A stretch of DNA of 54,007 bases from an uncultured Dehalococcoidia bacterium (GCA_950072105.1 CATMOE010000021.1:1-54007); one strand, 5' to 3'; shown: positions 17,301 through 47,927, numbered from the stretch's first letter. The notes: a model not told the origin generated them from the letters alone. Made by a program: numbers and translations.

Positions 17301-17353
17301 ACTTTCTCCCTAGATCGGTCTCTAAGTAAACACCGGAGCGAATAGCGCTCAAG

Positions 17354-18160: not shown

Positions 18161-18245
18161 CGTTACTATTCTACCTCGAATCGGGAATCTTGGGAACCCA
18201 CGCTCTCTACTGCGTTAGATCAGTGGACCGCCTATTTGGCTCCGA

Positions 18246-18914
18246 TTATAGCTCCAGCGCCTTCATTACCCGTTTGTTGATCTGCTCGACGGTGTCGACG
18301 CCGGGAACTTCCGCCAGAAGGGCGCGCTCCCGGTAATAATCCAGCACCGGCATTGTTTCCGACTTGTACACTTCGATCCGTGTCTGAACGGCTTCCGGGC
18401 GGTCGTCGGTTCGTTGGTAGAGCTCTCCGCCGCAACGCTCACAGATCAGTTCCCGGTCCGGCGATCCGTTAGTCCCACCGGGCGCCATGCTATGTGGTGC
18501 TTGGCACTGGCGGCAAACGAACCGGCCTGCCAGGCGCCGGAGCAATTCGTCCTCCGGCACATCTATATACACTACTTTGTCCAGACCCCGAGCCCGAGTC
18601 TGCAAGGCCTCTTCCAAGGCTTTTGCTTGGAACCGGTTACGGGGAAATCCATCTAGGATAAATCCCTCCTCGGCATTTAAGGACATCACTTTCTCCAAAG
18701 CGATGTCGATGGTCAGTTCGTCGGGAACCAGAACCCCCCGGTTCATATAATCGGCGGCCTTCAACCCCAAGGGCGTTTCGGCTTGAACGTGGTGGCGGAA
18801 CAGATCGCCCGAACTTATATGAGAGATTTTCAGCCGCTCGGTCAATAACTGAGCTTGGGTCCCTTTGCCCGCTCCCGGTGGACCGAAAAGGACCAATCGC
18901 AAACCTTGTGTCAA
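18246..18914 (-). CDS. adk: Adenylate kinase (Zn-binding LID)
   Basis: GPPGAGKGTQA, HISSGDLFR, LDGFPR, CRQC...CERC, QRTDD. Confidence 0.97.
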   Translation of the reverse strand: MTQGLRLVLFGPPGAGKGTQAQLLTERLKISHISSGDLFRHHVQAETPLGLKAADYMNRGVLVPDELTIDIALEKVMSLNAEEGFILDGFPRNRFQAKALEEALQTRARGLDKVVYIDVPEDELLRRLAGRFVCRQCQAPHSMAPGGTNGSPDRELICERCGGELYQRTDDRPEAVQTRIEVYKSETMPVLDYYRERALLAEVPGVDTVEQINKRVMKALEL

Positions 18915-18915
18915 A

Positions 18916-20271
18916 CTACCTCAAGAACCCTTCATAGTTTCGCATCATTAGCTGCGCCTCCAATTGGCGCATCGTATCCAAGCCTACACCCACCATGATT
19001 AGAAGGCTGGTGCTGCTAAGGGAAATCGCTTGAACATCGGTAATCAAAGACGCCAAGTAGGGAACGATGGCGATGAACCCTAGGAACAACGCGCCGCCCA
19101 TGGTGATGCGCACAATGACCCGGTTCAAATATTCCTGAGTCGGCCGGCCCGGTCTGATCCCCAAGACAAACCCACCGTTTCGTTGCAGATTTTCCGCCAA
19201 ATTTTGCTGGTTGAACACCACCAGGGTGTAGAAGAAGGTGAAGATCACCACCAAGATAAACACCATGATCCAATACGGAGGGGAAGTTGGGACCAGTAGG
19301 TCCGCGAAGAACCTGGCTACATCTCCGATCACCCCGGTGGTCGTGGCGAAGTAGGTGGCCATCGTGCCGGGCAATATCACTATGGAGAAAGCGAAGATCA
19401 ACGGAATCATTCCGGCGGAGTTGATGCGCAAAGGTAGGTAGGTCGCTCCACTCTGCCGATACATCCGTCCACCACGGAATATGCTCCGTCCGTATTGGAC
19501 CGGGATGCGCCGGTGGGCCTCATTGAACCAGACGATAAGGGCAATGATCCCCACGCCGATGATGGCGAAGAACCCGATACCCAAGACGTTGTCAGTATCC
19601 AGGAACCCCTGGCTGAGCAATCCGGGGAAACCGGCCACGATTCCGGCAAAGATTATCAGCGATATTCCATTGCCGATACCCCGCTCGGTGATCAACTCGC
19701 CCATCCAAACTAGGAACAAGGTTCCCGCCACGATGGACAAGAGGGCGGCAACAGTGGGTAAAAGGGAAGCCCCGAAAAATCCAACGACAAAAGTAGGGGC
19801 GCCAGTCACACTGTCTACGAACACACCCGACCCCTGCAGCAGGATCAATTGCCCATAACCCTGGGCCAAGGCGATGGGCACAGTCAACCAGTGGGTGATG
19901 CGGCTCATCTTGGCCCGCCCGGACTCTCCTTCCTTGGCCATTTCTTGGAGTTTGGGAAACACCGGGGTGATCAACTGCATCACGATCGAGGCCGTGATAT
20001 AGGGAAAGACCCCCAGGGCCACGATGCTCATTCGGCGAAGGGCTCCCCCACTGAACAAGTCAAGAAAACCCAGCAGGTCGTTGTTTTCAAAAAGGTTGGC
20101 AAGTGCCCCCTCATTGATGCCGGGCATGGGTATGTGGGCGGCAAACCGGTATATAGCCAACAAAGCCAACGTGAACAGGATCTTTGATCTCAGGTCAGGT
20201 AGGCTAAAGGCATCGATCGCCGCTTGTAGTAAACGGGGGAGGCGCCCCCCTTGTACTTCCGCCTCTAACAT
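18916..20271 (-). CDS. secY: Preprotein translocase SecY
   Basis: SIVALGVFPYITASI, WMGELITERGIGNGISLIIF, AGMIPLIFA, GIRPG, SLLIMVGV. Confidence 0.98.
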   Translation of the reverse strand: MLEAEVQGGRLPRLLQAAIDAFSLPDLRSKILFTLALLAIYRFAAHIPMPGINEGALANLFENNDLLGFLDLFSGGALRRMSIVALGVFPYITASIVMQLITPVFPKLQEMAKEGESGRAKMSRITHWLTVPIALAQGYGQLILLQGSGVFVDSVTGAPTFVVGFFGASLLPTVAALLSIVAGTLFLVWMGELITERGIGNGISLIIFAGIVAGFPGLLSQGFLDTDNVLGIGFFAIIGVGIIALIVWFNEAHRRIPVQYGRSIFRGGRMYRQSGATYLPLRINSAGMIPLIFAFSIVILPGTMATYFATTTGVIGDVARFFADLLVPTSPPYWIMVFILVVIFTFFYTLVVFNQQNLAENLQRNGGFVLGIRPGRPTQEYLNRVIVRITMGGALFLGFIAIVPYLASLITDVQAISLSSTSLLIMVGVGLDTMRQLEAQLMMRNYEGFLR

Positions 20272-33686: not shown

Positions 33687-33761
33687 GTCTAATCATCCCT
33701 GTCTGCCACATGGGGCATCTTGAACCCGGTTCGGCAGGCCGCCCTTAACAACCGAATGTTC

Positions 33762-33928
33762 TACCCGAGGCGCTGCAAACGGCTTAAGGCTTAATAGGAA
33801 AGGCGGTGAAAGGCCGCCGCGGTTGCGCCACTGTATGCGGGTTTAGCTTGGGTCCTGTTTCTCGTATCTCACGATTTGAGACGGGAAACCCCAGGCGTAT
33901 CCCGCGAGTCAGGACACCTGCCCGGGTA
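33762..33928 (+). ncRNA. Cobalamin riboswitch (1)
   Basis: AATAGGAAAGGCGGTGAAAGGCCGCC-GCGGTTGCGCCACTGT ... GAGTCAGGACACCTGCC; P1 tacccgagg/cctgcccgggta; upstream of cbiE-cobN. Confidence 0.88.
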
Positions 33929-34017
33929 AGGGGAGCTCTCGTCTGCGCTAAACAGAAACATGCCCCCGTGGCGCTACCCTAATTTAGGATCGCGCCACGA
34001 CCACGCCAGCAAACTCT

Positions 34018-34130: not shown

Positions 34131-34853
34131 ATGAGTCTAAATCATAGCGATACGTCCATCGCGATCGTGGCAGTCGGGCCGGGTGATCCCAGTCTGATGA
34201 CGCTGCAAGGGCGTGAGATTCTCGAGAACGCCGACGTGGTGGCGGGGTTCAAGACCGTGCTAGACGTGGTCCAGCCCTGGCTCACCAACGCTGAAGCCTG
34301 TCCCATGACCTACCGGGACCAAGAGGACGTGCTGGCGTACGTCGAGTCCCAGGCCTTGCTCGGTAAGAAGTGCGTTGTCTGCTGCTGGGGCGACTTGAAC
34401 GTGTCGGCCCGGGAGTTGTTGGCCAGGGTACGGCGCCGGGCCGGGAAGGTGGAGCTGACCCCCGGCATCAGCTCGATCCAGATGGCTTGTGCCAGGTCTG
34501 GAATCTCCCTGGAAGACGCGGTGTTCATCACCCTCCACCAGCGGCGCGGCGCTTCCGACGACTTCGCCTCGGACGTTGAAGAGGTTGTCCACTTTCTCAA
34601 AGATGGGCGCAGGCACGTGATCCTGCTGCCCCGTCCCTACGACCTCATGCCCCCCGGTATCGCCAAGGAATTAGTGTCTGCGGGCATTGCGGGAGACAGG
34701 CCGGTCACCGTGTTCCAGCGCCTTACCTTGGACGGCGAGAAACGGTGGGACGGCAACCTTGATGAGTGCGGCGAGATCACTGAGGAGTTCAGCGATCTTT
34801 CCATAATGGTGATCTTTACGGAAGCCGGCGAAGGGCCGGACTCCCATGAGTGA
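34131..34853 (+). CDS. cbiE: Cobalt-precorrin-7 / precorrin-6Y C5-methyltransferase (tetrapyrrole methylase, CbiE-like)
   Basis: IVAVGPGDPSLMT, ADVVAG, WGDL, PGISSIQMACAR, ITLH, QRLT...E; B12 riboswitch context. Confidence 0.8.
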   Translation: MSLNHSDTSIAIVAVGPGDPSLMTLQGREILENADVVAGFKTVLDVVQPWLTNAEACPMTYRDQEDVLAYVESQALLGKKCVVCCWGDLNVSARELLARVRRRAGKVELTPGISSIQMACARSGISLEDAVFITLHQRRGASDDFASDVEEVVHFLKDGRRHVILLPRPYDLMPPGIAKELVSAGIAGDRPVTVFQRLTLDGEKRWDGNLDECGEITEEFSDLSIMVIFTEAGEGPDSHE

Positions 34854-34859: not shown

Positions 34860-37800
34860 ATGACTGAGCGAACGGATACAACCACCCAACGGAAGACTGT
34901 CCTGTTCGTCACCACCGCCGATACGGACATCCTCACCGCCGAGCGGGCCTTAAGCGGGATGCCCGATGACTATCCTCACGTCAGGGCGTTCAACCCGGTA
35001 GCCCTGGAAACCCCCGAGGCCCAGGAAGAACTGATGACGGCCCTGGAAGACGCGGGAGTTGTGATCTTGCGTCTCCTGGGTGGGAAACAATCCATGCCCC
35101 AGTTGTTTGACCAACTGGTCCGCGATTGCCGTGTCCGAGGGATACCCCTGATAGCCTTGCCAGGTCATCAGGAGTGGGACGAGGACCTGGTTACCGCCTG
35201 CACCGTGCCGGTGGCGGAAGTGGAAACGGTCTTCGCCTACCTGATGCGCGGCGGCGTGCAGAACCTGGAAAACCTCTTCTTTTTCCTCAGCGATACCTAC
35301 TTGGGTACCGATTATGGACACGAAGCTCCCAGCCACATTCCTTGGGAGGGCCTGTATCACCCCGATGTGGCCCAAGGCACCGAGGTCGATGATTACATCC
35401 GGGACCGGTTCCAGGCTGGAAAGCCCCGCATCGCCCTTCTTTTTTACCGGGCCCACTGGATGAGCGGAAACCTGCTTACCATCGATAGTCTGATTCACCG
35501 GTTAGAAGCGATGGGCGCCAACGTCCTGCCGTTGTTCTCCTACAGTCTGAAGCACAATCCTGAAGAGGACGGCCAAGGCAACCGTACCTTTACCGAGTAC
35601 CTGGCCGATCCCGACGGTGTTCCCAAGGTCGATTGCATCATCACGACCATGGGGATGTCCATGAGCGAGTTGAGCACCGAGGGACCTACCATCGCCGCCG
35701 GATGGACGGTGGATTACCTTGACAAGTTGGACGTTCCAATCATCCAAGGAATCATCAGCACCGGCACTGAAGAGGATTGGCAGGAAAGCTCCCTGGGGTT
35801 AGGTCCCATCGACACTGCCATGAGCATAGCCCTGCCCGAGTTCGACGGCCGAATCATATCGGTACCCATATCCTTTAAGCAGGAAACCGGACATAGCGGC
35901 GCATCGTCTGGCGCTGCCAAACTGTCCGGACGTATGCAGCGTTACGTGCCCCGGGAAGACCGGGTGGACTATCTGGCCCGCCTATCCATCAAATGGGCCG
36001 ATCTACGGCTCAAGGAAAACTCGGAAAAGCGGATCGCTATCATCCTAAGCAACTATCCCACCAAGGACGCCCGTATCGGCAACGCGGTGGGTCTGGATAC
36101 ACCGGCATCGGTGATCCGCATTCTGAATGCCATGAAAGGCGCCGGTTATCACGTCACCGATATACCCGAATCCGGAGATGAGCTGGTCCACCGCATAATC
36201 GAACGGTGCAGCAACGACCGGGACTCGCTTACCGAAGAGCAACTTAAAATGGCGGTCGGTCACGTCACCAGCCGCCAATACGCCGAATGGTTTCAGGGAT
36301 TTCCAGCCAAGGTTGTCCAGGAGATGACCGAGGCTTGGGGTGAGCCGCCGGGACAGGTTTACCGCACCAACGGAAGCCTGGCCATAGCGGGCATCGACCT
36401 GGGTAACGTCTTTATCGGCCTGCAACCGCCCCGGGGATTCGGCGAACATCCCATCGCCATCTACCACAGCCCGGACTTGGCTCCGACCCATCATTACATC
36501 GCCTACTATCGCTGGATCCGGGATGTCTTCAAAGCCGACGCCATGATCCACGTTGGAAAACACGGCACCCTGGAGTGGCTACCCGGGAAGGGCATCGGCT
36601 TGTCCGAAGCTTGTTATCCGGAGTTGGCGTTGAGTGACGTTCCCCTCTTTTACCCCTTCATAATTAACAACCCCGGCGAGGGCGCCCAGGCCAAGCGCCG
36701 CACCCACGCCACCATCGTAGACCACTTGATTCCGGCGATGACCACCGCCGATAGCTACGGTGACATCGCCCGGGTTGAGCAATTGATGGACGAACATTAC
36801 CAGTGCCAGACGCTGGACCCGGCCAAGCTCCCCCTGCTGGAAGCCCAGATCTGGGAGTTGGTCAAAGCAGCCGAATTGAACCGTGACCTAGGCATCGACG
36901 ACCTCCCCGAGGATTTCGGCGAATTCATTCTGGAGATAGACGGTTATCTCTGCGAACTAAAAGACGCTCAGATAAAGGACGGGCTTCATATTCTGGGGGA
37001 GGCCCCCGAGGGCGAGCTACTTATCGGCCTGCTGTGCGCCCTGACACGTCTGGACATTAGCGGCATTCCAAGCCTACGCAAGGCATTCGCGGAAGCCCTG
37101 GGGCTGGATTACGGCTCGATCATCGACGAGCCGGCGCTCGCGGCTGATGGAAACGTTCATCCGGCATTAATATCGGCAGATCCGGACACCCCGGTGCGCA
37201 GTCAGGGAGATTTGCTGGAGCGCATAGAGTTGCTGTGCCGTGAAGCCTACCGCCTGCTGTTGGCTCAGGACTTCAATCCCGATTTCGTGGCCCCAGTGGT
37301 GTCCCAAATCTTGGGACAAGCTGACGCTCAAACCCAGCTCGTGCTGGGTTATGTGGCGGATACCATTTATCCAGCCTTGCAACGTACCCCTGATGAGATC
37401 GGCAACTTGCTTCGAGGGCTGGAAGGCCGGTTCGTGCCTCCGGGGCCCAGCGGAGCGCCCACCAGGGGAATGGCCAACATCCTGCCCACGGGGCGCAACT
37501 TTTACTCGGTGGACCCCAAGACCATCCCGTCGCCATCCGCTTGGGAAACCGGCAAGGCCCTGGCTGACGCTCTGCTGGAAAAGTACCTGACCGAGGAAGG
37601 CGCCTATCCCGAAATGGTGGGACTCGTGGTCTGGGGGACGTCGGCCATGCGCACCCACGGCGACGACGTGGCCCAGATCCTCCAGTTGTTGGGAATCAGG
37701 CCGGTCTGGCAGCCGGAAAGCCGTAGGGTCGAAGGGCTGGAGGTCATACCCGTCTCCGAATTGGGCCGCCCCCGCATCGACGTAACCATAAGGATCAGCG

Positions 37801-38747
37801 GCTTTTTCCGTGACGCCTTTCCAAACCTTATCAATCTTCTGGATCAGGCCGTGGAAATGGCGGCATCCCAGGACGAATCTCCCGAAGAAAACTTCATTCT
37901 CAAGCACCTCAGAGAAGACCTGGCCCGTGACCGATCTACCTCAGATAGCGAACACCCCTCTCCCTCAGAAAGAGGGGCCGGGGGTGAGGGCGACCGGGCC
38001 ACGTCTCTGTATCGGATATTCGGCAGCAAACCGGGCACCTACGGGGCCGGTATCCTGGCGGCGTTGGACGAGCGCAATTGGGAAACGGTGGAGGACTTGG
38101 CGGAGGTCTACACCGCTTGGGGCGGCTACGCTTACACCCAGCGAGACTTCGGAGTGAGTGCCAGGCCCCAGTTCCGGCAGCGGTTCAGCCAGATCGTCGT
38201 GGCCGCCAAGAACCAGGACACCCGGGAGCACGACATCTTCGACAGCGATGACTACATGCAGTATCACGGGGGCATGATCGCCACCGTGCGGGCCTTGACC
38301 GGCCGGAACCCGCGCCAATTTTTCGGCGATAGCTCCGACCCTTCCCGAGCTAGGGTCCGCGATCTGCAAGACGAAGCGCGCCGGGTGTTTCGGAGCAGGG
38401 TGGTCAACCCCAAGTGGATCGAGTCGATGAAGCGCCATGGCTACAAGGGTGCGTTCGAGCTGTCGGCCACCGTGGATTACATGTTCGGCTACGACGCCAC
38501 TGCCCAGGTGGTGGAAGACTGGATGTACGAAGACGTAACCGAGAGCTACGTCTTGGATCCGGAGACCCAGAAGTTCTTCCAGGAGAGCAATCCCTGGGCG
38601 CTGCGTAGCATCGTGGAACGGCTACTGGAAGCCATCGAACGGGGTCTTTGGGCGGAGCCTCCACCGGAGATGAGGGAGAAGTTGCAGGAGCTCTACCTGG
38701 ACCTGGAAACAGAATTGGAGGCTAGGCAAGAAGGGCAACAGCCATAA
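34860..38747 (+). CDS. cobN: Cobaltochelatase large subunit CobN, 1295 aa
   Basis: LPEFDGRII, NYPTKDARIGNAVGLDTP.S, QPPRG, HVGKHGTLEWLPGK, NNPGEGAQAKRR, GPSGAPTRG..NILPTGRNFYSVD, RISGFFRDAFP, RVVNPKWI..M.RHGYKGAFE. Confidence 0.96.
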   Translation: MTERTDTTTQRKTVLFVTTADTDILTAERALSGMPDDYPHVRAFNPVALETPEAQEELMTALEDAGVVILRLLGGKQSMPQLFDQLVRDCRVRGIPLIALPGHQEWDEDLVTACTVPVAEVETVFAYLMRGGVQNLENLFFFLSDTYLGTDYGHEAPSHIPWEGLYHPDVAQGTEVDDYIRDRFQAGKPRIALLFYRAHWMSGNLLTIDSLIHRLEAMGANVLPLFSYSLKHNPEEDGQGNRTFTEYLADPDGVPKVDCIITTMGMSMSELSTEGPTIAAGWTVDYLDKLDVPIIQGIISTGTEEDWQESSLGLGPIDTAMSIALPEFDGRIISVPISFKQETGHSGASSGAAKLSGRMQRYVPREDRVDYLARLSIKWADLRLKENSEKRIAIILSNYPTKDARIGNAVGLDTPASVIRILNAMKGAGYHVTDIPESGDELVHRIIERCSNDRDSLTEEQLKMAVGHVTSRQYAEWFQGFPAKVVQEMTEAWGEPPGQVYRTNGSLAIAGIDLGNVFIGLQPPRGFGEHPIAIYHSPDLAPTHHYIAYYRWIRDVFKADAMIHVGKHGTLEWLPGKGIGLSEACYPELALSDVPLFYPFIINNPGEGAQAKRRTHATIVDHLIPAMTTADSYGDIARVEQLMDEHYQCQTLDPAKLPLLEAQIWELVKAAELNRDLGIDDLPEDFGEFILEIDGYLCELKDAQIKDGLHILGEAPEGELLIGLLCALTRLDISGIPSLRKAFAEALGLDYGSIIDEPALAADGNVHPALISADPDTPVRSQGDLLERIELLCREAYRLLLAQDFNPDFVAPVVSQILGQADAQTQLVLGYVADTIYPALQRTPDEIGNLLRGLEGRFVPPGPSGAPTRGMANILPTGRNFYSVDPKTIPSPSAWETGKALADALLEKYLTEEGAYPEMVGLVVWGTSAMRTHGDDVAQILQLLGIRPVWQPESRRVEGLEVIPVSELGRPRIDVTIRISGFFRDAFPNLINLLDQAVEMAASQDESPEENFILKHLREDLARDRSTSDSEHPSPSERGAGGEGDRATSLYRIFGSKPGTYGAGILAALDERNWETVEDLAEVYTAWGGYAYTQRDFGVSARPQFRQRFSQIVVAAKNQDTREHDIFDSDDYMQYHGGMIATVRALTGRNPRQFFGDSSDPSRARVRDLQDEARRVFRSRVVNPKWIESMKRHGYKGAFELSATVDYMFGYDATAQVVEDWMYEDVTESYVLDPETQKFFQESNPWALRSIVERLLEAIERGLWAEPPPEMREKLQELYLDLETELEARQEGQQP
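37955..37990 (+). repeat. Palindromic CCCCTCT...AGAGGGG-CCGGGGGTGAGGG repeat embedded in frame in cobN
   Basis: cccctctccctcagaaagaggggccgggggtgaggg, translated as PSPSERGAGGEG; same hairpin-plus-G-rich-tail design as intergenic 52903 and 53841 elements. Confidence 0.7.
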
Positions 38748-38776
38748 ATAGGCCTTCAGGGATGGGACCGGGCTTG

Positions 38777-38856
38777 CGTCATTCCGGCGCAGGCCGGAAT
38801 CCACAGAACGTTCGCATCAACTGCGGGCCTGGACACAGGCCTTCGCCGGTGAGACG
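38777..38856. repeat. CGTC-tagged REP doublet after cobN
   Basis: cgtcattccggcgcaggccggaatcca and an inverted degenerate copy ctggacacaggccttcgccggtgagacg. Confidence 0.8.
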
Positions 38857-39020
38857 GTGTGGGCTCTTTATACTTCTAACGTAAAAACTGATAGGAGCAC
38901 TACTTTCAACGGGTAGAAGTGTTTGATAGAATTGGGACGCTCGTGAAACCGCTAGGATTATCAGGAGCGGGATCACGTACGCGGGAGACCATTTCTTAAA
39001 CAGCTCCCCGGAGGCAGACG

Positions 39021-39449
39021 GTGGATATAGCCCTCGACTTGATAAGGGACCTTACCAAAGACGACCGGGTGATGTGGGTTGTTGGCGGAGGCGAGGTGGT
39101 CAGCGAGAATAACTCCAAGGGGATCAAGGAACCGGAGTTAGACCGCGGCTACATCACCGTCGAAGCAGACAATTGGCACTTCCATATCGGCCTGGACAAT
39201 ATAACGGGGATCCAATTCGTGGAGGCGAAGAGCCACGGGGACATGCTCTCATATTATGTCCGATTCTCCGGCTCTAGCGAAGAAACCTTGCTGAGAGGGT
39301 ATTTCCCCAACCCGTACTTGGATGACGACAACCAGCGTACCGAGTTGCAGCCGGATAGGTTAAAGGCTTTCAACGATATGCGCGAGCAATACGAGGGAAA
39401 GGACGGAATCGTGTTCGCCCGTCCACCAGGGCAAACTAGCGGGACGTAG
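39021..39449 (+). CDS. Hypothetical protein resembling ChuX/HutX/HemS-type tetrapyrrole-binding fold
   Basis: GTG start with GGAGG SD. The segment HFHIGLDNITGIQFVE...MLSYYVRF....EETLLRGYF...LQPDRLKAFNDMREQY follows the ChuX/HutX pattern by eye. CDS is solid, family call tentative. Confidence 0.6.
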   Translation: MDIALDLIRDLTKDDRVMWVVGGGEVVSENNSKGIKEPELDRGYITVEADNWHFHIGLDNITGIQFVEAKSHGDMLSYYVRFSGSSEETLLRGYFPNPYLDDDNQRTELQPDRLKAFNDMREQYEGKDGIVFARPPGQTSGT

Positions 39450-39519
39450 AGGCCCATCGCCAACCTTGGACCGCTGGAGTCGGCTGGTTTTTAACGAGCA
39501 AACCTTAACAAATGAAGAC

Positions 39520-39704
39520 TGCCTGTTGGTGGCCCCGATAAATCGGGGCTGAAAAGGGAAGCCGGTGTAAGTCCGGCGCGGTCCCGCCACTGTAACTGGT
39601 GAACCAACCCAAGCCGCAAGGTGCGAAGTCACTGGCCCGATAACCCGGGCCGGGAAGGCTGGGAGAACGGTTGAAGCCAGAAGCCAGGAGACCTGCCACA
39701 GGCA
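39520..39704 (+). ncRNA. Cobalamin (AdoCbl-type) riboswitch (2)
   Basis: AAAAGGGAAGCCGGTGTAAGTCCGGCGCGGTCCCGCCACTGT ... CACTG...GGGAAG ... AGCCAGGAGACCTGCC; P1 tgcctgt/acaggca. Confidence 0.96.
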
Positions 39705-39751
39705 TGGATTGATACACTTCGAGGCAGAGGGTATGAATTGGACGGATTTTC

Positions 39752-39781
39752 GCCCGGTCACGAAGACCGGGCTATTTTTTT
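39752..39781 (+). terminator. Intrinsic terminator, expression platform of Cbl riboswitch 2
   Basis: gcccggtc-acgaa-gaccgggc followed by taTTTTTTT. Confidence 0.85.
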
Positions 39782-39882
39782 CTTAAGACGGCGCGTCTAG
39801 CTGTCCGAGAACATTCAGCGAGGACGGCCGGGATGAATGAAACCCACGCGAATTCCAGAGGTTGCCTATGGAAAGGAGTCGA

Positions 39883-40710
39883 ATGGATAGTAATCAAAAC
39901 CCTCTGTTCGACAGCATGCGCCGAGCCGGTGCGCTAAGCGAACTCTTTAACCTCCCAGTCCGGAAGCGGGATCAGGACGGCTGGCTCGAGGCTCGATCCC
40001 TGTTCCAGGACGATGATCAGCGCCTGCAGGACATGGTGATGGCCCTTGGGCGTGACCGGTGGGGCACCGGCAACCACCACGCCGCCTGTTCGGCCTTCGT
40101 TATTGCCTACCTAACCCGGGTCACCCGGCCGCTGATCTCCCAATACGTGTTGGAGCGCCGGGTGCCTGACGTGCGCTTGAGTAACCTGGAGTTCCACTGG
40201 GACGGCCAGCGTATAGATGGCACCGCACTCAAACGGCCGACCTTTGCCGCGCTTCCGGCTGATGTTGCGTCGAGTCACCAAGACGCCGTGGTTGTCGCTG
40301 ACGCGGCGGAACTCTACGCCCGGCTCAAGGGGTGGCTGTTCGACGCTAACCTACACATAGTGATTCCGTCACTTCGCCGGGCGGCGCGGGCCAGCATCAA
40401 AGTTTCCTGGAATACCGTTGCCGACTCGTGCGCCCAGGCGTTCAGCAGGCTATATGACATAGCGGAAGAACCCGAATCAGTGTTTAAGGATGCCGACGCC
40501 TTCTTCGGCGACCCATCGTCGCCGGTGTACCGGCAATTGGCCATGGAGGTGTTCGGCCACCGGGGTAAACTAGGCCTCTTTTCCAGGCGTTCCGGATGCT
40601 GCCTCTATTGGCGGACGGAGAAGTCCAGCGACTTCTGCTCCAACTGCATCTTGCTGACTCGCGAGCAACAGGACACGCGGTTCCGGGAGACCCTGGATGG
40701 CCGGAAGTGA
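39883..40710 (+). CDS. FhuF-like ferric-siderophore reductase family protein with C-terminal 2Fe-2S motif
   Basis: C-terminal RRSGCCLYW-x8-CSNC (CC-x11-CxxC, FhuF signature); ATG 39883 follows AAGGAG. Confidence 0.8.
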   Translation: MDSNQNPLFDSMRRAGALSELFNLPVRKRDQDGWLEARSLFQDDDQRLQDMVMALGRDRWGTGNHHAACSAFVIAYLTRVTRPLISQYVLERRVPDVRLSNLEFHWDGQRIDGTALKRPTFAALPADVASSHQDAVVVADAAELYARLKGWLFDANLHIVIPSLRRAARASIKVSWNTVADSCAQAFSRLYDIAEEPESVFKDADAFFGDPSSPVYRQLAMEVFGHRGKLGLFSRRSGCCLYWRTEKSSDFCSNCILLTREQQDTRFRETLDGRK

Positions 40711-40768
40711 GGGGTGGGCTGACCTGCCAACGACAACACGGATCCTAAAAAATAAATAGGGGTTCCAA

Positions 40769-42364
40769 ATGACATTTTTTTCTCGAACCATCCCAGTATT
40801 TCTGGCGGTGCTGGCATTAGCCGTCACCGCGTGTGGTGGAGCCGCCACCGCTGTTCCAGCGTCCACAACTGCTCCTCTAGCGGCGGCAACATTAATCCCA
40901 GCTGACAGTGGCAAAGACTCGTCTATGAATATCGCCGTGGTCTTTCTTGATCAGCCGCCTGACCCACTACAGGCAGGGTGGCTGGCCCTTCCGACAGGTC
41001 TGTCCGAGACCTTGTTCCGACTGGGTACGGACTTCAGTCCCGAACCATGGTTGGCCACAGGGGCCCAGCAGGTAGATGAAAAAACTTGGGAGATCACCAT
41101 TCGCCCGGGCGTGAAGTTTCACAACGGAGCGGGTATGGATGCCGCAGCGGTTAAAGCTTCCCTGGAACGGGCCATCACCCAGAACAAGGGCATGGAGACC
41201 TTGCTTGATATAGCTAGTATTGAGGTGATGGACCCCCTGAAGGTAAGAATTGTGACCAACGGCGCAAGCCCCGTCCTGCCTGGATTGCTTACCGCCAATA
41301 AAACCGCCATCGTAGATGCCGCAGCAGCCCAGGCCATGGGTGACGCCTTTCCCATCAAACCGGTATTGACCGGCCCTTACAAAGTGGAGACGTTCGAACT
41401 GGATAAGGAAATGGTGGTAACTCGCCACGATCAGTATTGGGGTTCTCTTCCCAAGCTGGGCCGGATAAAATACCTTGGCTTGGCCGACGCCAACAGCCGG
41501 TTGTTGGCGTTACAGAGCGGCGACGTGGACATCGCCGTTTACCTTTCGCCTGAGGGGACTTCTACGGTGCAAAACGACCCTAATCTAGCAGTGAAGTCCG
41601 CGGCGCCAAATGCTCTGACTTTTATGTTCGTCAACCACGAAAGAGGAGCAATGAATGACGAGCGGGTTCGCCAGGCAGTAGTCCTAGCTGTTGACCGTCA
41701 AGCCCTGGTCGGTGCGATAACGCAAGGCAAAGGCGCCGAGGCCATAGGACCATTCCCACCTGGATTCCTGACTTGTGATCAACTTCGTGCACACCGCTTC
41801 GAGCCGGAAAAAGCGAGGGCTCTTCTCAGCGAAGCGGGGTACCGGGATACCGATGGCGACGGAATCGTGGAAAAAGACGGCCAGCCCTTAGTCTTAGATC
41901 TACTCACCTATCGGCAGCGGCCCGAGTTGCCTCTCATCGCGGAGGCCGCTCAATCGATGCTGAAAGACATAGGAATCCGAGCCAAAGTTCAGTTGGTGGA
42001 ACAACCGGTTCCTGCCGCGAATCAAGGGAATTGGGATCTCTTTACGTGGTATAACGGCACAACTTCCACGGGTGATCCATTCTGGGCCCTTGACCGCATG
42101 TACACTACAGGTGGTTCGGGCAACCGTGGTCACTTCAGCAGTTCACGGGTAGACGATCTGGCCGCTCAGGTGGGGCATGCCATAGACCCAGCGGAAAGGG
42201 AACGGCTAGCTTGTAAAGCTACGCAGGCGATCATCGACGAAGTGGCGATAGTGCCAATACTGTTCCCGAATTTTAATTATGGTGTATCGAATGATGTAGT
42301 CGGGTTTGACGAGCCTCATCCGGTGCCGATGTATTTCATCGATAGCAACGTAGGGAAACGGTAG
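40769..42364 (+). CDS. ABC transporter substrate-binding lipoprotein, family 5 (NikA/Opp-like)
   Basis: Lipobox LAVTA-C; GLSETLFRL....PEPWLA, TWEITIRPGVKFHNG, GPYKV, ALQSGDVD, RVRQAV..AVDR, DTDGDGIVEKDG. Confidence 0.9.
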   Translation: MTFFSRTIPVFLAVLALAVTACGGAATAVPASTTAPLAAATLIPADSGKDSSMNIAVVFLDQPPDPLQAGWLALPTGLSETLFRLGTDFSPEPWLATGAQQVDEKTWEITIRPGVKFHNGAGMDAAAVKASLERAITQNKGMETLLDIASIEVMDPLKVRIVTNGASPVLPGLLTANKTAIVDAAAAQAMGDAFPIKPVLTGPYKVETFELDKEMVVTRHDQYWGSLPKLGRIKYLGLADANSRLLALQSGDVDIAVYLSPEGTSTVQNDPNLAVKSAAPNALTFMFVNHERGAMNDERVRQAVVLAVDRQALVGAITQGKGAEAIGPFPPGFLTCDQLRAHRFEPEKARALLSEAGYRDTDGDGIVEKDGQPLVLDLLTYRQRPELPLIAEAAQSMLKDIGIRAKVQLVEQPVPAANQGNWDLFTWYNGTTSTGDPFWALDRMYTTGGSGNRGHFSSSRVDDLAAQVGHAIDPAERERLACKATQAIIDEVAIVPILFPNFNYGVSNDVVGFDEPHPVPMYFIDSNVGKR

Positions 42365-42365
42365 C

Positions 42366-43313
42366 ATGCGGGCCTATGTAGCGCGCCGGCTGCTAATTCT
42401 GCCGGCGCTGCTATTTGGGATCTCCATTATCAGCTTCGCTCTATTAAATTTTGCTCCTGGAGACCCGGCGGAAATTATCCTCCGACGCCAGAATCCAGAA
42501 GAACCGCCATTGCCGGAAGCGGTTCGGGCGCTTCGACAGCAATTGGGTCTGGATGCTCCTTTGCCCCTTAGATATGGCCGGTGGCTGTTCGACGTGTTAA
42601 AGGGCGACCTAGGGGAGTCTTATCGCAGCGGCACTCCGATCATGAGCGAACTGGTGAAGCGATTTCCGGCCACGATGATGTTGGCAACGGCCGCTCTTGC
42701 TCTGTCGGTAGTGGTCAGCATCCCCCTGGGTATAATAGCGGCGCTCTGGCGTGGGTCGCTGTTAGACTCCCTGAGCCGGCTTCTAGCCCTCTTGGGCGCT
42801 GCGGTTCCCAGCTACGTGTTGGCTTTGCTTTTGATGCTGTTCGTCGCGGTGAAGCTAAACTGGCTGCCGGCGATTGGCTACGGGAGCCCCAAGAACCTGA
42901 TACTGCCGGCTATCGCGTTGGCGGCCGGGAGCAGCGCTCAAGTCATGCGGCTGACGCGGGCTAGCATGCTGGAGGTTTTGCAACAGGACTATATGCGCAC
43001 CGCCCGGTCCAAGGGCTTGAATGAACGCACGGTAATCATGGTGCACGGTTTAAAAAATGGATTACTGCCGGTGGTCACTATGCTGGGGATCAACCTGGGT
43101 CATCTCCTCGGCGGGACAGTCATCGTTGAGACGATCTTTGGCTGGCCCGGAGTCGGCAGGTACGCCGTCGAGTCCATCCTGCAAAGGGATTACCCGGTGG
43201 TGCAGGGTTTCGTCTTGTATATGGCGTTCATCTTCCTCCTAGCAAACCTGGCGGTGGATTTTGCCTACCGTTGGCTGGATCCTCGGCTCCACTTTGGCCG
43301 CCAGCCGGCATAA
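42366..43313 (+). CDS. ABC transporter permease (NikB/DppB-like)
   Basis: PGDPAE, LGLD.PL..RY.RW...GDLGESY, EAA loop DYMRTARSKGL, IVETIFGWPG.G, RDYPVVQG, LDPR. Confidence 0.93.
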   Translation: MRAYVARRLLILPALLFGISIISFALLNFAPGDPAEIILRRQNPEEPPLPEAVRALRQQLGLDAPLPLRYGRWLFDVLKGDLGESYRSGTPIMSELVKRFPATMMLATAALALSVVVSIPLGIIAALWRGSLLDSLSRLLALLGAAVPSYVLALLLMLFVAVKLNWLPAIGYGSPKNLILPAIALAAGSSAQVMRLTRASMLEVLQQDYMRTARSKGLNERTVIMVHGLKNGLLPVVTMLGINLGHLLGGTVIVETIFGWPGVGRYAVESILQRDYPVVQGFVLYMAFIFLLANLAVDFAYRWLDPRLHFGRQPA

Positions 43314-43335
43314 AGGGGTAGGCTTCGAGGTGCAA

Positions 43336-44208
43336 ATGGAGGGAACGCTACGGTTGAGGGCGCTGAGCCTCAGAATTCACCGCCGGCTGCGGCTTTTTTT
43401 AAGGGATCCGGCCAATGTACTAGGCTTGGTCATCGTTGTCTTGGCCGTTACCACCGCCATTGCGGCTCCCCTATTGGCTCCCCATGACCCCACGGACGTA
43501 AGTCTGCAGGACCGTCTGCTTCCCCCGGGCCGCGATTTCCCCCTGGGCACTGACCACTTGGGAAGGGACGAGCTTAGCCGCCTGCTCTACGGGGCGCGGA
43601 CGACCCTGCGAACAGCGGGAGTGGTATTGGCTGTAGTGTTTGCCATCGCGTTCATGGTGGGCACTCTTTCTGGATATTATGGCGGCTGGTTGGATACTCT
43701 TTTGATGGGCCTGGTAGACCTGCTTCTGGCTTTCCCCGGATTGATCCTGGCCGTCGCAATCGCGGGTACTTTGGGCCCAAGCCTGATGAATGTAATGATT
43801 GCGATGGCTGCGGTGTGGTGGGCCGGTTACGCCCGGCTGGTTCGCGGCATGGTACTTGCGATACGGAACCGGGAGTTTGTGGAAGCGGCGCGGGCGATAG
43901 GAGCCAGTGACGGACGGATTATGGTGTCTCATATCTGGAGGAATATTCTCGGCCCTGTGGTGGTGCTGGCTACCCTCGACATGGGTTGGATCATCCTCGG
44001 CATCTCCGGATTGAACTTTCTTGGTTTAGGAGCGCAGCCGCCCACACCGGAGTGGGGCGCGATGTTAAACGACGGGCGACCTTTTCTGCAGACGGAACCG
44101 CAAATGATGCTGTACCCGGGAGCGGCTATCTTTCTGGTGGTGTTGGGGTTCAACCTGCTGGGAGATGGACTGCGGGACCTGCTTGACCCCACTACCTATC
44201 CACGTTAG
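43336..44208 (+). CDS. ABC transporter permease (NikC/DppC-like)
   Basis: LGTDHLGRD.LSRLLYGAR, EFVEAARAIGA, LGLGAQPPTPEWG.ML, FNLLGDGLRD.LDP. Start moved to ATG 43336 (GAGG SD). Confidence 0.93.
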   Translation: MEGTLRLRALSLRIHRRLRLFLRDPANVLGLVIVVLAVTTAIAAPLLAPHDPTDVSLQDRLLPPGRDFPLGTDHLGRDELSRLLYGARTTLRTAGVVLAVVFAIAFMVGTLSGYYGGWLDTLLMGLVDLLLAFPGLILAVAIAGTLGPSLMNVMIAMAAVWWAGYARLVRGMVLAIRNREFVEAARAIGASDGRIMVSHIWRNILGPVVVLATLDMGWIILGISGLNFLGLGAQPPTPEWGAMLNDGRPFLQTEPQMMLYPGAAIFLVVLGFNLLGDGLRDLLDPTTYPR

Positions 44209-44317
44209 TCTGTATCCCGCGATTCGACTATTTCATCAAGGTAAAACATCGGGCGCCATGCCCGACAGGTAAGTCTCACCTGGAAATTCCCAAGTGCGGA
44301 CAATTGGAGATTAAGCC

Positions 44318-46435
44318 TTGGATCAACGGCCCGTACCCAGCTTCCCCTTTACCGGCATCGTAGGCCAGACCGCGATGAAGCGGGCTTTGCTGCTGAACGC
44401 CATCAACACCAAGATTGGCGGCGTTCTCATTCGGGGCAAGAAGGGAACCGCCAAGTCCACCGCCGTTCGCTCACTGGCCGCGCTTTTGCCCGAAGTTTCC
44501 GTTTTGCAAGGCTGCCCTTATAGTTGCTCCCCTGATGCTCTCCAGGGATTGTGTCACCTTTGCGACGATAGTGGCGGCGAGGGCTCGGCGGTAAGCCGCC
44601 AAGTGCGTATCGTCAACTTGCCAGTGGGCGCTACCGAGGACCGCTTGGTGGGGTCTCTAGACATCGAGCAGGCCATCAAAACGGGCAACCGCAGCTTCGA
44701 GCCGGGTCTCATAGCCACCACTCACCGGGGCATTCTCTACGTTGACGAAGTTAACCTCCTCAACGACCACTTGGTCGACGTTTTGCTGGATGCCGCCTCC
44801 ATGGGCCGCAACTACGTGGAGCGGGAAGGAATCTCCGTCAGCCACGCCGCCGATTTCATTCTGGTGGGCACCATGAACCCTGAAGAGGGCGACCTGCGGC
44901 CCCAATTGCTGGACCGGTTCGGTCTGGCGGTGGAAGTCGATGGCGTCTTCAGTGCCGAGGAGCGCCGGGAGGTCGTCCGGCGGCGTATCGCCTACGAAGC
45001 CGACCCCTTCGCGTTCATGGAGCAGTGGCGGGAGGCCGAAGAGGAAGAACGGGAACGCATCTCGGCCAGCCGGATGTTGCTGCCTCAAGTTCAGGTCGGC
45101 GAAGAAATACTGGAGCTGATCACCGATATATGCGCCGAATACCAAGTAGACGGTATGCGGGCCGATATCGTGATGTACAAGGCATCGAGCACCATCGCCG
45201 CCTACGAAGGGCGGACCCAAGTCTCGCCGGAAGACGTTCGGGAAGCGGCTCAGATGGCGTTGCTGCATCGTCAGCGGCGCCAACCCTTCCAGCAACCCCA
45301 CCTGGCGACCGAGCAGCTGGACACGATGGTAGATGACTTCCAGAACCAGCCCCGCCAACGCGAACCTTCGGATCAGGGGTCCAACTCTAACCAAGAGCAG
45401 GAAGACAGCGACCCAGACCCATCGAACCAAGACCAGCCTCCCGAGGACTCCGGTCCTCAGGACGAACTTTTCGAAGTTGGCACGCCCTTCAACATTCGCT
45501 CCCTGCAGGTACAACCTCCCGATCGCCGGGCCAGGACCAGCGCAGGACGCAGGGCCAACACCATTAGCGGCACTGCCACCGGACACTACACCGGGGCCAA
45601 GGTCCCTGAAGGAAAAGCCTCAGACCTGGCCTTGGACGCAACCCTCCGCGTCGCCGCCCCGCACCAACTGGAACGACGGGGCGAGCTGTCAGCAGTCAGC
45701 GATCAGCGGTCAGGAGAAGTTCCCGGATCTCCCGGCTTCCTGATCGAGCCGTGGGACATCCGCGAGAAGGTGCGGGAAACCAAGACTGGCAGCCTGATTC
45801 TGTTCGTGGTGGATGCCAGCGGCTCTATGGGGGCCCAGAGGCGTATGGTGGCGGTAAAGGGAGCCATCCTGTCCCTGCTGCTGGATGCCTATCAAAGACG
45901 GGACCGGGTGGGGCTGATCTCCTTTCGTGGGACCAGTGCCGAGGTTGTGTTGCCGCCCACCTCCAGCGTGGACCTGGCTGAGATGTGTCTGCAAGAGATG
46001 CCCACGGGAGGGCGCACGCCTTTGAGCCGGGGGATTTACTTGGCCCTGGATATCATAGAGACCGAGCGTATGAAAGACCGCAACGTGTTGCCGCTGATCG
46101 TTCTGCTATCCGACGGCCGGGCCAACGTCGCCATGGGCGGCGCCGGCGGGGACGGGAGGCCGGCAAGCAAACCCTTGGATGAGGCGAAAGCCGTCGCCGC
46201 TCTGGTTCAGCAGCAGCACATCCCCGCGGCGGTCGTAGACACCGAAGTAGACTTCATCCGGTTGGGCCTGGCAAAACCCATCGCCGAGGCCATGGGCGCC
46301 CATTACCTGATGTTGGAAGACCTGCAGGCCGGCAATCTGGCCGATGCGGTGCGCCTACAGCTACCCACTCCCGACGCTCCCCCTCTAACCCAAGATGAGA
46401 TCCAGGGACTTTTGGACAAGTTGGCTCTGTCATAA
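44318..46435 (+). CDS. ChlI/ChlD-type chelatase subunit (AAA+ ATPase, acidic linker, vWA); probable CobN partner
   Basis: FPFTGIVGQ, GKKGTAKST (Walker A), GATEDRLVG, LYVDEVNLL, GTMNPEEG.LRPQLLDRFGL; vWA MIDAS DASGSM, GGRTPL, LSDGRAN. Confidence 0.92.
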   Translation: MDQRPVPSFPFTGIVGQTAMKRALLLNAINTKIGGVLIRGKKGTAKSTAVRSLAALLPEVSVLQGCPYSCSPDALQGLCHLCDDSGGEGSAVSRQVRIVNLPVGATEDRLVGSLDIEQAIKTGNRSFEPGLIATTHRGILYVDEVNLLNDHLVDVLLDAASMGRNYVEREGISVSHAADFILVGTMNPEEGDLRPQLLDRFGLAVEVDGVFSAEERREVVRRRIAYEADPFAFMEQWREAEEEERERISASRMLLPQVQVGEEILELITDICAEYQVDGMRADIVMYKASSTIAAYEGRTQVSPEDVREAAQMALLHRQRRQPFQQPHLATEQLDTMVDDFQNQPRQREPSDQGSNSNQEQEDSDPDPSNQDQPPEDSGPQDELFEVGTPFNIRSLQVQPPDRRARTSAGRRANTISGTATGHYTGAKVPEGKASDLALDATLRVAAPHQLERRGELSAVSDQRSGEVPGSPGFLIEPWDIREKVRETKTGSLILFVVDASGSMGAQRRMVAVKGAILSLLLDAYQRRDRVGLISFRGTSAEVVLPPTSSVDLAEMCLQEMPTGGRTPLSRGIYLALDIIETERMKDRNVLPLIVLLSDGRANVAMGGAGGDGRPASKPLDEAKAVAALVQQQHIPAAVVDTEVDFIRLGLAKPIAEAMGAHYLMLEDLQAGNLADAVRLQLPTPDAPPLTQDEIQGLLDKLALS
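45684..45714 (+). repeat. Heptamer (TCAGCnn) tandem repeat inside the chelatase CDS
   Basis: agctgtcagcagtcagcgatcagcggtcagg; 29/31 identical to the reverse complement of 46508-46538. Confidence 0.75.
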
Positions 46436-46507
46436 CCCTGCACCCCTTCCTGTTTACATCCCTCAGGCGAATTGTTACGCTTTTATCCTATCTTTTAGAA
46501 AACAAAC

Positions 46508-46538
46508 CCTGACCGCTGACCGCTGAATGCTGACAGCT
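46508..46538 (-). repeat. Heptamer (GCTGAnn) tandem repeat upstream of glyQS
   Basis: cctgaccgctgaccgctgaatgctgacagct. Confidence 0.75.
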
Positions 46539-46556
46539 AACCGCTAGGAGGCTCGC

Positions 46557-47927
46557 GTGGCCCGAACTCTTCCTTACGCCGACATGGACAAGATCCTCTC
46601 TATATCCAAGCGTAGGGGGTTCGTCTTCCAGAGCAGCGAGATATATGGGGGCCTGGGATCCACTTGGGATTACGGTCCCTTGGGTGTGGAGCTGAAGCGC
46701 CACGTTAAAGAGGCTTGGTGGCGGTCGGTGGTGCTGGACCGGGACGATATGGTGGGTCTGGACGCCGCCATCTTGATGCATCCCCAGGTATGGGTCGCCA
46801 GCGGGCATGTGGAAAACTTCACCGACCCCCTGGTAGAGTGCCGTTCGTGCAACCGGCGTTTTCGCCTAGATCATCTCGCGGAAGCGGCGGGCATCGAAAT
46901 GGATCCGGCCAACCCCGCAAAGAGTTTGGAAGCTCTTGCCTGCCCTGATTGCGGCGGCGAGTTGGGCGACCCTCGCCAGTTCAACCTGATGTTCAAAACC
47001 TTCATGGGACCCGTGGAGGAAACTGCCAGCGAAGTGCACCTGCGCCCCGAAACCGCCCAGGGCATCTTCGTCAACTTTGCCAACGTAGTTAACTCGACCC
47101 GTAAAAAACTGCCCTTCGGCATCGCCCAGATCGGAAAAGCCTTCCGCAACGAGATTACCCCCGGCAACTTTACCTTCCGCACCCGGGAGTTCGAGCAGAT
47201 GGAGATCGAGTACTTCGTCAAGCCGGGCACCGACGAGGAATGGCTGCAAAAATGGGTGCAATCCCGGCTGGAATGGTACGTGGAATACGGCATTCGCCGG
47301 GAGAACCTGCGCCTGAGGCAACACGGGTCCGACGAACTGGCCCACTACGCTAAGGACTGCTACGACATCGAATACCGGTTTCCCTGGGGCTGGGCGGAGT
47401 TGGAAGGCATTGCCAGCCGGACCGACTATGACCTGCGCCAACACGCCGAGCACAGCGGCCAAGACCTGACCTATTTCGATGAAGAGACCAAGAGCCGCTA
47501 CTTCCCCTACGTTGTAGAACCTTCCGGGGGCCTGGACCGGGGAGTATTGGCTTTCTGGCTGGATTCCTACGACGAAGAGCCGGACGGTGAAGCGGTCCGG
47601 GTCGTCTGCCGGCTGCATCGCAAACTGGCCCCGGTCACCGTGGCTGTTCTGCCTTTAAGCCGCAACGACAAACTCGTTTCCACTGTCCAAGATGTCCATG
47701 CACGGCTGCGGCGTCACTTCACTACACAATTCGACGATGCTCAAAGCATCGGCCGCCGCTACCGCCGCCAGGACGAGATCGGCACACCCTACTGCGTCAC
47801 CGTGGATTTCGACTCCCTGGATGACCAGCAAGTAACCATCCGCGACCGGGACACCATGCACCAGAGCCGCGTTCCCATCGACGATCTCGTGTCCGTGCTC
47901 CAAGACAAACTCGAACACGGATGGTGA
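46557..47927 (+). CDS. glyQS: Glycine--tRNA ligase, alpha2 type
   Basis: KRRGFVF.SSEIYGG, DYGPLG, FNLMF, LRPETAQGIF, QIGKAFRNEITP, REFEQME, EPSGG.DR, IGRRYRRQDEIGTP. Confidence 0.96.
   Translation: MARTLPYADMDKILSISKRRGFVFQSSEIYGGLGSTWDYGPLGVELKRHVKEAWWRSVVLDRDDMVGLDAAILMHPQVWVASGHVENFTDPLVECRSCNRRFRLDHLAEAAGIEMDPANPAKSLEALACPDCGGELGDPRQFNLMFKTFMGPVEETASEVHLRPETAQGIFVNFANVVNSTRKKLPFGIAQIGKAFRNEITPGNFTFRTREFEQMEIEYFVKPGTDEEWLQKWVQSRLEWYVEYGIRRENLRLRQHGSDELAHYAKDCYDIEYRFPWGWAELEGIASRTDYDLRQHAEHSGQDLTYFDEETKSRYFPYVVEPSGGLDRGVLAFWLDSYDEEPDGEAVRVVCRLHRKLAPVTVAVLPLSRNDKLVSTVQDVHARLRRHFTTQFDDAQSIGRRYRRQDEIGTPYCVTVDFDSLDDQQVTIRDRDTMHQSRVPIDDLVSVLQDKLEHGW

Follow-up and report, generated by a model that had tools for sequence, protein, structure and literature searches.

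A cobalamin riboswitch heads genes for a FhuF-family protein, Nik-type importer parts and a cobaltochelatase subunit: a candidate cobalt acquisition-to-insertion system in an uncultured Dehalococcoidia bacterium

NikABCDE homologues preceded by B12 riboswitches have been predicted to transport cobalt in Clostridium tetani as well as Desulfitobacterium hafniense (Zhang et al. 2009, PMC2667541, in a passage citing Rodionov et al. 2006), and the same paper, where it turns to predicted cobalt transporters, names CbtA/CbtB among them. Genetic proof exists for CbtJKL of S. meliloti, a cobalt importer of the ATP-binding cassette (ABC) type controlled by an adenosylcobalamin riboswitch and treated in part of PMC7689651, which also reviews the class I chelatases. 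Here, we describe a related arrangement in 54,007 nucleotides of DNA from an uncultured Dehalococcoidia bacterium (GCA_950072105.1, CATMOE010000021.1:1-54007), a stretch that we call the window. It contains a cobalamin riboswitch followed, on the plus strand, by a run of five genes encoding a FhuF-like protein, a family-5 solute-binding (SBP5) lipoprotein, a NikB-like and a NikC-like permease, and a fused ChlI/ChlD subunit of the CobN cobaltochelatase (Table 1). In the explanation that we favour, and to which we give slightly better than even credence, this putative riboswitch-terminator operon would be silenced at plentiful B12 and, under B12 shortage, would import cobalt and pass it on to the CobN chelatase.

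An earlier note on the same DNA had described one cobalamin riboswitch heading genes for a FhuF-like protein, a family-5 lipoprotein, two permeases and the ChlI/D partner of the adjacent CobN, and this description proved correct in every point when checked with Rfam, Pfam and NCBIfam and by reading the cysteine motif directly. Beyond that description, CobN has a riboswitch of its own (riboswitch 1), a gene for a 142-aa protein with the ChuX/HemS fold lies between CobN and the second switch (riboswitch 2), and the cluster holds no ABC ATPase gene. The terminator hairpin of riboswitch 2, placed between aptamer and start codon, is present in the minimum free energy and centroid folds alike (z -3.04), and the element is predicted to act as an OFF switch that silences the downstream genes at high B12. 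With B12 scarce, it would let transcription through to fhuF-like, the importer genes and chlID, upon which the binding protein and the two permeases could bring in cobalt. The cargo would probably be a small chelate, since NikA-type proteins bind metal chelates, and the ATPases would be lent by an Opp/Dpp/Nik-type pair whose genes lie in another part of the genome. The 2Fe-2S centre of the FhuF-like protein may then reduce a Co(III) complex and so make Co(II) available to CobN-ChlID, which is the least certain step of the scheme.

The case for cobalt is made mainly by the position of the importer genes. We compared the 10 kb downstream of the 142-aa gene in 48 genomes of the same bacterial family and in the window, 49 loci altogether, and in 41 of them the array that starts with cobN is ended by chlID. 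The slot between the two is occupied by a CbtB-like gene and CbtA in 31 loci (PF09490, 133 and 125 bits in the two CbtA proteins checked), by a riboswitch and an SBP5-NikB-NikC module in seven, with the window included and the switch present in all, and by a riboswitch and a FecCD-type ABC importer in four; it is empty in seven. Three transport modules with no relation to one another thus take turns at a single place next to the cobalt chelatase, which makes this place a swap site. Because the Nik-like module of the window occupies the place of CbtA-type cobalt transporters, gene order provides strong contextual evidence that it supplies cobalt, and this reading agrees with the Nik prediction in PMC2667541 as well as with the proven CbtJKL (PMC7689651). 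The earlier proposal of a path from cobalt acquisition to insertion under B12 control is thus supported by the slot comparison and also by gene content: CbiM, CbtA and CobW were not found in the window's genome, which, given its 92% completeness (6% contamination), is to be read as "not found" and not as "absent". The sole NicO match in this genome, of 21 bits, lies under the cut-off.

In these 48 loci, and in the 63 FhuF-like loci discussed below, riboswitches were counted with an nhmmer profile built on six of their kind and not with Rfam, and divergent aptamers may escape this profile; Rfam itself was run on 27 loci. Statements about neighbouring genes rest on tblastn and Pfam, and longest open reading frame (ORF) calls are sometimes antisense in GC-rich DNA.

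Table 1. Features of the cobN-chlID region; positions are counted from the first nucleotide of the window.
Feature	Position	Strand	Evidence and remarks
Cobalamin riboswitch 1	33751..33939	+	RF00174, 64.3 bits (gathering 31.5), model 1-189 of 189; ahead of cbiE-like, cobN and ChuX-like gene
CbiE-type precorrin methyltransferase	34131..34853	+	PF00590, 109.6 bits; TIGR02467 CbiE, 119 bits (cut-off 92.9)
CobN, large subunit of aerobic cobaltochelatase	34860..38747	+	PF02514, 1398 bits; TIGR02257, 1266.9 bits (cut-off 822)
142-aa ChuX/HutX/HemS-fold protein (DUF7676 / LFE_1968-like)	39021..39449	+	PF24724, 43 bits; PF22684, 28.3 bits; AF2 model, pLDDT 89.6
Cobalamin riboswitch 2 (aptamer)	39509..39714	+	RF00174, 120.4 bits (gathering 31.5), E 1e-29, model 1-189 of 189; re-found in genome scan
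Intrinsic terminator of riboswitch 2 expression platform	39752..39781	+	Hairpin 39752-39772: 8 bp in the stem (7 of them G-C), loop of 5 nt, followed by tract TATTTTTTTC
FhuF-like, ferric-siderophore-reductase-like protein, predicted 2Fe-2S site	39862..40710	+	PF06276 FhuF, 32.7 bits (cut-off 25.2); first gene after riboswitch 2
Family-5 solute-binding lipoprotein, NikA-like	40769..42364	+	PF00496 SBP_bac_5, 279 bits; leader ends VTAC, lipobox read from sequence
NikB-like permease	42366..43313	+	NF045470 Opp2B "nickel ABC transporter permease", 379 bits (cut-off 350); E. coli-type nikB model, 334.7 bits (cut-off 447)
NikC-like permease	43261..44208	+	NF045474 Opp2C, 325 bits (cut-off 300); TIGR02790 nikC, 340.6 bits (cut-off 358.45); ORF as listed, though an internal ATG near 43336 may be the true start
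Fused ChlI/ChlD-type AAA+/VWA subunit of CobN cobaltochelatase	44318..46435	+	TIGR02442 "putative cobaltochelatase", 781.6 bits (cut-off 779.45, just passes); AAA_lid_2, VWA_2 and Mg_chelatase domains
Glycyl-tRNA synthetase	46557..47927	+	PF03129 and PF00587; 3' of chlID in most related loci; conserved neighbour, not counted as a working part

The systems that share the slot differ from one another in kind. CbtA/CbtB lies at the same place, between cobN with the ChuX-like gene on one side and chlID on the other, but, as a small membrane system, it is not homologous and does without a binding protein, and it has its own riboswitch in only three of the 31 loci. The 68-aa gene before CbtA has no Pfam CbtB match even at E 10; we take it to be CbtB-like from its position and His-rich tail, going by the CbtB motif. 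CbtJKL shares with the window the riboswitch-controlled ABC importer for cobalt, and a related FecCD-type module is found in the four sister slots; as characterised in PMC7689651, however, it is a type II system (BtuF/FecB-like) with its own ATPase, whereas the window's importer belongs to the SBP5/Opp-Nik family. The FecCD-type slots (L158, 1419-5329; L156, 1512-5383; L155; L161) consist of a riboswitch followed by Peripla_BP_2, FecCD and ABC_tran. Two of the four are preceded by a gene for a 287-aa protein with CbiX-like and thioredoxin-like 2Fe-2S matches, both weak at about 22 bits each and under cut-off, which we read as a putative second case of an Fe-S protein accompanying a B12-switched importer. 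In one Nik-like slot (L145, 4877-5787), a PIN-domain gene and a small upstream ORF, resembling a toxin-antitoxin pair, are inserted between nikC-like and chlID.

What the window has in common with the NikABCDE homologues presented in PMC2667541 is that a cobalamin riboswitch precedes an ABC importer of the peptide/nickel family, that the setting is one of B12 and that the importer is read as one for cobalt. By comparison with the sets named there, the window lacks NikD and NikE genes, places a FhuF-family gene first and chlID last, and has its module between cobN and chlID. The closest PDB sequence matches of the binding protein are the nickel-binding proteins 3t66 (200 bits) and SaNikA 4ofj (144 bits), and both permeases reach the equivalog level of the Opp2B and Opp2C models while remaining under the cut-offs of the E. 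coli-type nikB and nikC models. In S. aureus, NikA (Opp5A)-NikBCDE (Opp2) and Cnt (Opp1) import metal-histidine or metal-staphylopine complexes, that is, chelates and not bare ions. The Opp5A and Opp2 models are the top-scoring ones for the binding protein and both permeases of the window, and SaNikA is among the closest solved relatives. In contrast to the S. aureus systems, the binding protein stays under the equivalog cut-off, there are no ATPases, metallophore synthesis genes were not seen, and control is by B12 and not by a nickel or zinc regulator.

The relatives of the binding protein also bear on a second possible cargo: the ABC module might import a corrinoid fragment or another cobalt-tetrapyrrole for salvage, with the FhuF-like and ChuX-like proteins processing what is taken up. 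B12 riboswitches commonly control corrinoid importers, the haem-binding HbpA structures 3m8u and 3tpa are found among the PDB relatives of the binding protein, and the locus carries ChuX-fold genes. Moreover, E. coli NikA can bind haem too, as mentioned in PMC2667541, and the strong cobalt ligands of the sea may be cobalamin precursors or breakdown products, as discussed in part of PMC5993222. We nevertheless judge this explanation improbable, given that the module sits in the position of a CbtA-type cobalt-ion transporter, beside a chelatase needing free Co(II), that the permeases pass nickel-type model cut-offs and that the closest solved relatives of the binding protein bind nickel.

The gene directly behind riboswitch 2 adds a putative redox component. 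In E. coli, imported ferric hydroxamates are reduced by FhuF at about -420 mV, and in this two-domain protein a CC-x10-C-x2-C motif binds the 2Fe-2S cluster, according to the account given in bioRxiv 10.1101/2023.07.04.547673. The window's protein has the C-terminal motif CC-x11-C-x2-C (C246, C247, C259 and C262), and the four cysteines are invariant in an alignment of 36 sequences. Its AlphaFold2 (AF2) model, built from 36 homologues, has a pLDDT of 87.3; the best PDB fold match found by Foldseek is E. coli FhuF (7qp5, TM 0.61/0.70), with the palm domains of NIS siderophore synthetases next, and in a protein language-model search the nearest clusters are FhuF-like (score 0.97). Because of the PF06276 match, the fold match to 7QP5, the invariant cysteines and the language-model clusters, we file the protein as a predicted, divergent representative of the ferric-siderophore-reductase (FSR) fold family, of which E. 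coli FhuF is the archetype. With that archetype it shares the two-domain fold, the PF06276 domain and a C-terminal four-cysteine loop with two adjacent cysteines; it differs in being only 13-14% identical, in being encoded under a B12 riboswitch and in its genomic setting, which is that of B12 and cobalt rather than iron. Such a protein might release cobalt by reduction, to which the chemistry and low potential of the FSR family and the repeated linkage to importers, in shuffled gene orders, both point.

The FhuF-like family appears to be confined largely to one part of the bacterial tree. A word-indexed protein search returned 130 FhuF-like proteins, whose organism names are all Chloroflexota except for one sponge-labelled record (Geodia barretti); among sampled genomes, the gene is present in 15 of 35 from the window's family and in 0 of the 25 that represent the order's other families. 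For its neighbourhood we used 63 loci from a pattern scan, with one genome per species, all of them Dehalococcoidia/Chloroflexota metagenome-assembled genomes (MAGs) bar one labelled otherwise. A same-strand cobalamin riboswitch stands upstream of fhuF-like in 28 of these loci, within about 230 nt in at least 18 of them. In a maximum-likelihood tree of 59 rows (dropped were L036, with an in-frame stop in its matching segment, and L090, L092, L093 and L095, with matches under 700 bases), riboswitch-linked rows fall in both halves, and B12 control of the family is therefore, as judged from these sequences, real and recurrent but not universal. Nik-like genes adjoin fhuF-like on the same strand in eight loci and divergently in two, in at least three gene orders, and the two SBP5 types found beside it are mutually just 26-29% identical. 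In the search for co-occurrence of riboswitch, FhuF and SBP5 across genomes that the earlier note had suggested, the combination recurs, in a minority of these loci. In three loci (L067, L068 and L070) a riboswitch lies between nikC-like and fhuF-like, and L070 has a further one before the binding-protein gene, which amounts to two switches in one array.

A number of findings weigh against the favoured reading. As to the importer, no NikD/NikE-type ABC ATPase gene lies between 39862 and 46435, and no ABC ATPase gene was found beside the Nik-like sets in the 63 related loci; the 13 oligo_HPY (Opp/Dpp/Nik-type) ATPase matches in the window's genome are on other contigs. The best NCBIfam match of the binding protein, Opp5A_nikA, gives 357 bits against a cut-off of 600, short of the equivalog level (TIGR02294 gives 153.7 against 393), and cobalt, nickel and a corrinoid fragment are not separable as cargo from the sequence. 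The joint transcription of chlID and the importer genes is putative. The FhuF-like protein departs from E. coli FhuF in its cysteine spacing, x11 and not the x10 of the FSR family (x9 in one of the 36 sequences), and scores under the cut-offs of FhuF_C (PF11575, 12.5 bits against 20.5) and of the siderophore-iron reductase FhuF equivalog (TIGR03951, 28.2 against 63.85).

The partnership of importer and FhuF-like protein is also loose. Among the seven Nik-like slots, fhuF-like is missing from four, comes last in two and comes first in the window, and in three of the four genomes whose slot is without it (85, 89 and 71% complete) it was not found. The four modules without it are orthologous to that of the window (binding proteins 48-49%, NikB 67-68% identical). 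Because these four of seven loci are without the gene, the FhuF-like protein is, by gene content, an accessory and not an obligatory part of the Nik-slot module. One genome (G018) carries CbtA in the slot together with a separate riboswitch-Nik-fhuF locus elsewhere, and the Nik-like module is therefore not simply a substitute for CbtA. Another contrary observation comes from a six-row clade (L054, L071, L073, L077, L078 and L083; about 3900-8850), in which fhuF-like directly follows genes for ATP sulfurylase and aprB and aprA, and has no riboswitch. This adjacency was weighed as a functional clue, namely that the protein might be a redox partner of APS reductase, but since a riboswitch and a DUF7676 gene part aprA from fhuF-like in four related loci, we discounted it as probably inherited synteny.

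Alternatively, importer and reductase might both be of the ordinary kind, the one for nickel or peptides and the other for ferric siderophores, and merely be placed in a B12 locus with no role in cobalt metabolism. The best family names are indeed those of nickel transporter parts and FhuF, the binding protein scores under every equivalog cut-off, and nhmmer finds no riboswitch at 35 of the 63 fhuF-like genes, a count that also tells against our own explanation. Even so, coincidental placement is very unlikely: each of the seven Nik-slot modules is preceded by a cobalamin riboswitch and fills the cobN-chlID interval, which in 31 sister loci holds CbtA, the 28 riboswitch-linked fhuF-like loci are spread across the tree, and in the annotated loci siderophore receptor or synthesis genes were not seen.

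A more serious alternative comes from the ChuX-fold proteins. Searching with the model of the 142-aa protein, Foldseek returns 3na2 (TM 0.76-0.81), 3fm2 (0.64/0.67), ChuX 6u9j/2ovi (0.61-0.63), HutX 5exv (0.61) and PhuS/ChuS/HemS; PF06228 scores 18.5 bits against a cut-off of 25, so that the protein belongs with this group by fold and not by sequence. Of 60 genomes of the family, 52 were found to have its gene, and in 27 of 30 loci the gene comes immediately after CobN and shares its strand. GUN4 plays the part of a carrier or activator for Mg-chelatase, and the 142-aa protein may, as a candidate on the strength of its predicted fold and gene position, be a tetrapyrrole carrier or activator for cobaltochelatase. 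We found no description of a ChuX-fold CobN partner in the literature.

FhuF-like genes, too, often have a ChuX-like companion: a DUF7676 gene abuts or overlaps fhuF-like in 26 of the 63 loci, four of them with the order riboswitch-DUF7676-fhuF-MFS. This pairing points to a tetrapyrrole-type partner or substrate, and because of it the FhuF-like protein might instead be a corrinoid or cobalt-tetrapyrrole reductase, acting for example on cob(II)yrinic acid a,c-diamide or in cob(III) reduction after CobN, together with ChuX/HemS-fold carriers and only loosely tied to the importer, which would still bring cobalt. Several arrangements would suit such a role. In 16 of the 63 loci riboswitch and fhuF-like occur without a same-strand transporter beside them and without a conserved downstream gene; fhuF-like lies between cobN and chlID in the window and in L036, L190 and L191; and in L148 it follows CbtA behind a riboswitch of its own. 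The 26 paired loci, these 16 and L148 all speak against the cobalt-release step of the favoured explanation, and the low potential of FhuF would probably suit the reduction of a cobalt corrin as well. Conversely, the family has as its ligand domain the "palm" domain of siderophore synthetases, known for hydroxamate and citrate chelates, and 20 of the DUF7676-paired rows form one riboswitch-free clade; Rfam, too, found no riboswitch in the two loci of this clade that were scanned (L025 and L029). Moreover, the gene was found in 15 of the 35 family genomes sampled, and about half have CobN without it, from which it follows that the FhuF-like protein is no essential step of the pathway. On balance we regard a corrinoid reductase as rather unlikely, yet as a live alternative, and note that this idea and cobalt release converge if the imported cobalt complex is derived from a corrinoid.

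If the FhuF-like protein does act on imported cobalt, the marine setting could supply the reason. The greater part of the cobalt dissolved in the sea, the upper ocean included, is bound as Co(III) to very strong ligands, which are believed to make it less accessible to some phytoplankton (PMC5993222). Marine metagenome runs contain the window's DNA, and the relatives of its proteins come from uncultured Chloroflexota/Dehalococcoidia, part of them labelled SAR202 cluster. A tentative and rather unlikely extension of the favoured explanation would be that marine SAR202-type Dehalococcoidia tap the Co(III) pool in a siderophore-like manner: a B12-repressed SBP5 importer would take up the inert complex, possibly a corrinoid breakdown product, and a FhuF-family 2Fe-2S reductase with ChuX-fold carriers would free Co(II) for CobN-ChlID. 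If true, a siderophore-like route for cobalt would stand in for both an ion transporter of the CbtA type and CobW as chaperone, and cobalt bound to ligands would have its first biological pathway.

Cobalamin riboswitches, B12-controlled Nik-like importers, CbtA-type transporters and CobN with a ChlID partner are all of kinds already known. A literature search found no published link of FhuF to B12 or to a cobalamin riboswitch. Relative to the literature found, what appears to be new is the frequent and direct targeting of a predicted FhuF-family Fe-S protein by cobalamin riboswitches, the putative placement of this protein in one operon with an importer and a chelatase ATPase, the cobN-chlID swap site and the candidate ChuX-fold companion of CobN. 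The statement in the earlier note that no B12 regulon of this composition is described therefore survives in part: a connection between FhuF and B12 was not found in print, while the CobN-ChlID pair is familiar. The NikABCDE homologues with B12 riboswitches, at least as introduced in PMC2667541, likewise anticipate the importer.

We know of no described answer to how microbes gain access to the ligand-bound Co(III) pool. The locus offers concrete, cloneable candidates for this question, namely a binding protein for ligand screening and a small predicted Fe-S protein that may reduce Co(III) or corrinoids; in these abundant B12 producers, which are uncultured, a B12 switch ties both to the enzyme of cobalt insertion. 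Microbial use of ligand-bound cobalt thereby becomes a testable question. The swap site, with at least three unrelated modules for cobalt supply, can serve as a guide to further cobalt transporters, and the ChuX-fold protein is flagged as a near-constant companion of CobN.

The chelatase itself shows nothing unusual. CobN and its AAA+/VWA partner exceed their curated cut-offs and are encoded together, as expected of a cobaltochelatase of class I (the CobN type). The combination of CobN and a ChlID-type partner is already known, and the pair in the window is the same (TIGR02442) and conserved across the family; what is unusual is that chlID stands, putatively co-operonic, behind the importer and fhuF-like. 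The genome scan found four cobalamin riboswitches; besides riboswitches 1 and 2, one stands before BluB and one before an operon of CobB, CobO, CobT, CobS, CbiB and CobD. With CobN and these later B12 genes behind further riboswitches, the organism looks like a B12 producer with late cobalt insertion through CobN.

The region is represented in metatranscriptome data. Six runs contain 69-80% of the window's sampled words, and contigs from four libraries cover 29-30 of 30 bins of 38700-47100; some of them bridge the junctions riboswitch-fhuF, SBP-nikB, nikB-nikC, nikC-chlID and chlID-glyS. In two runs coverage dips near 44039-44319, from which we draw no conclusion. A control stretch, 1-20000, is equally covered (27-30 of 30 bins), and therefore these contigs show neither regulation nor a single transcript; DNA carry-over is possible.

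A second fhuF-like tail occurs in the window's own genome (L002, contig C120, 1-600), where 39 aa, 64% identical, lie at the contig edge, followed by an apparent remnant of a NikC-like permease C-terminus and an amidohydrolase-like ORF. It is either a decayed second module or, given the contamination of the MAG, a strain or contaminant contig. Elsewhere in the window, the Rfam scan at gathering scores returned nothing at 6800-6880, where, at 6826-6869 in the gap between the ORFs 6109-6774 (minus strand) and 6972-8237 (plus strand), many different RNA-library contigs end or join, which suggests that a short element common to many other organisms lies at about 6800-6880. Finally, a SAM riboswitch (4194-4323, 73.1 bits) stands ahead of the ORFs 4415-5467 and 5471-6346.

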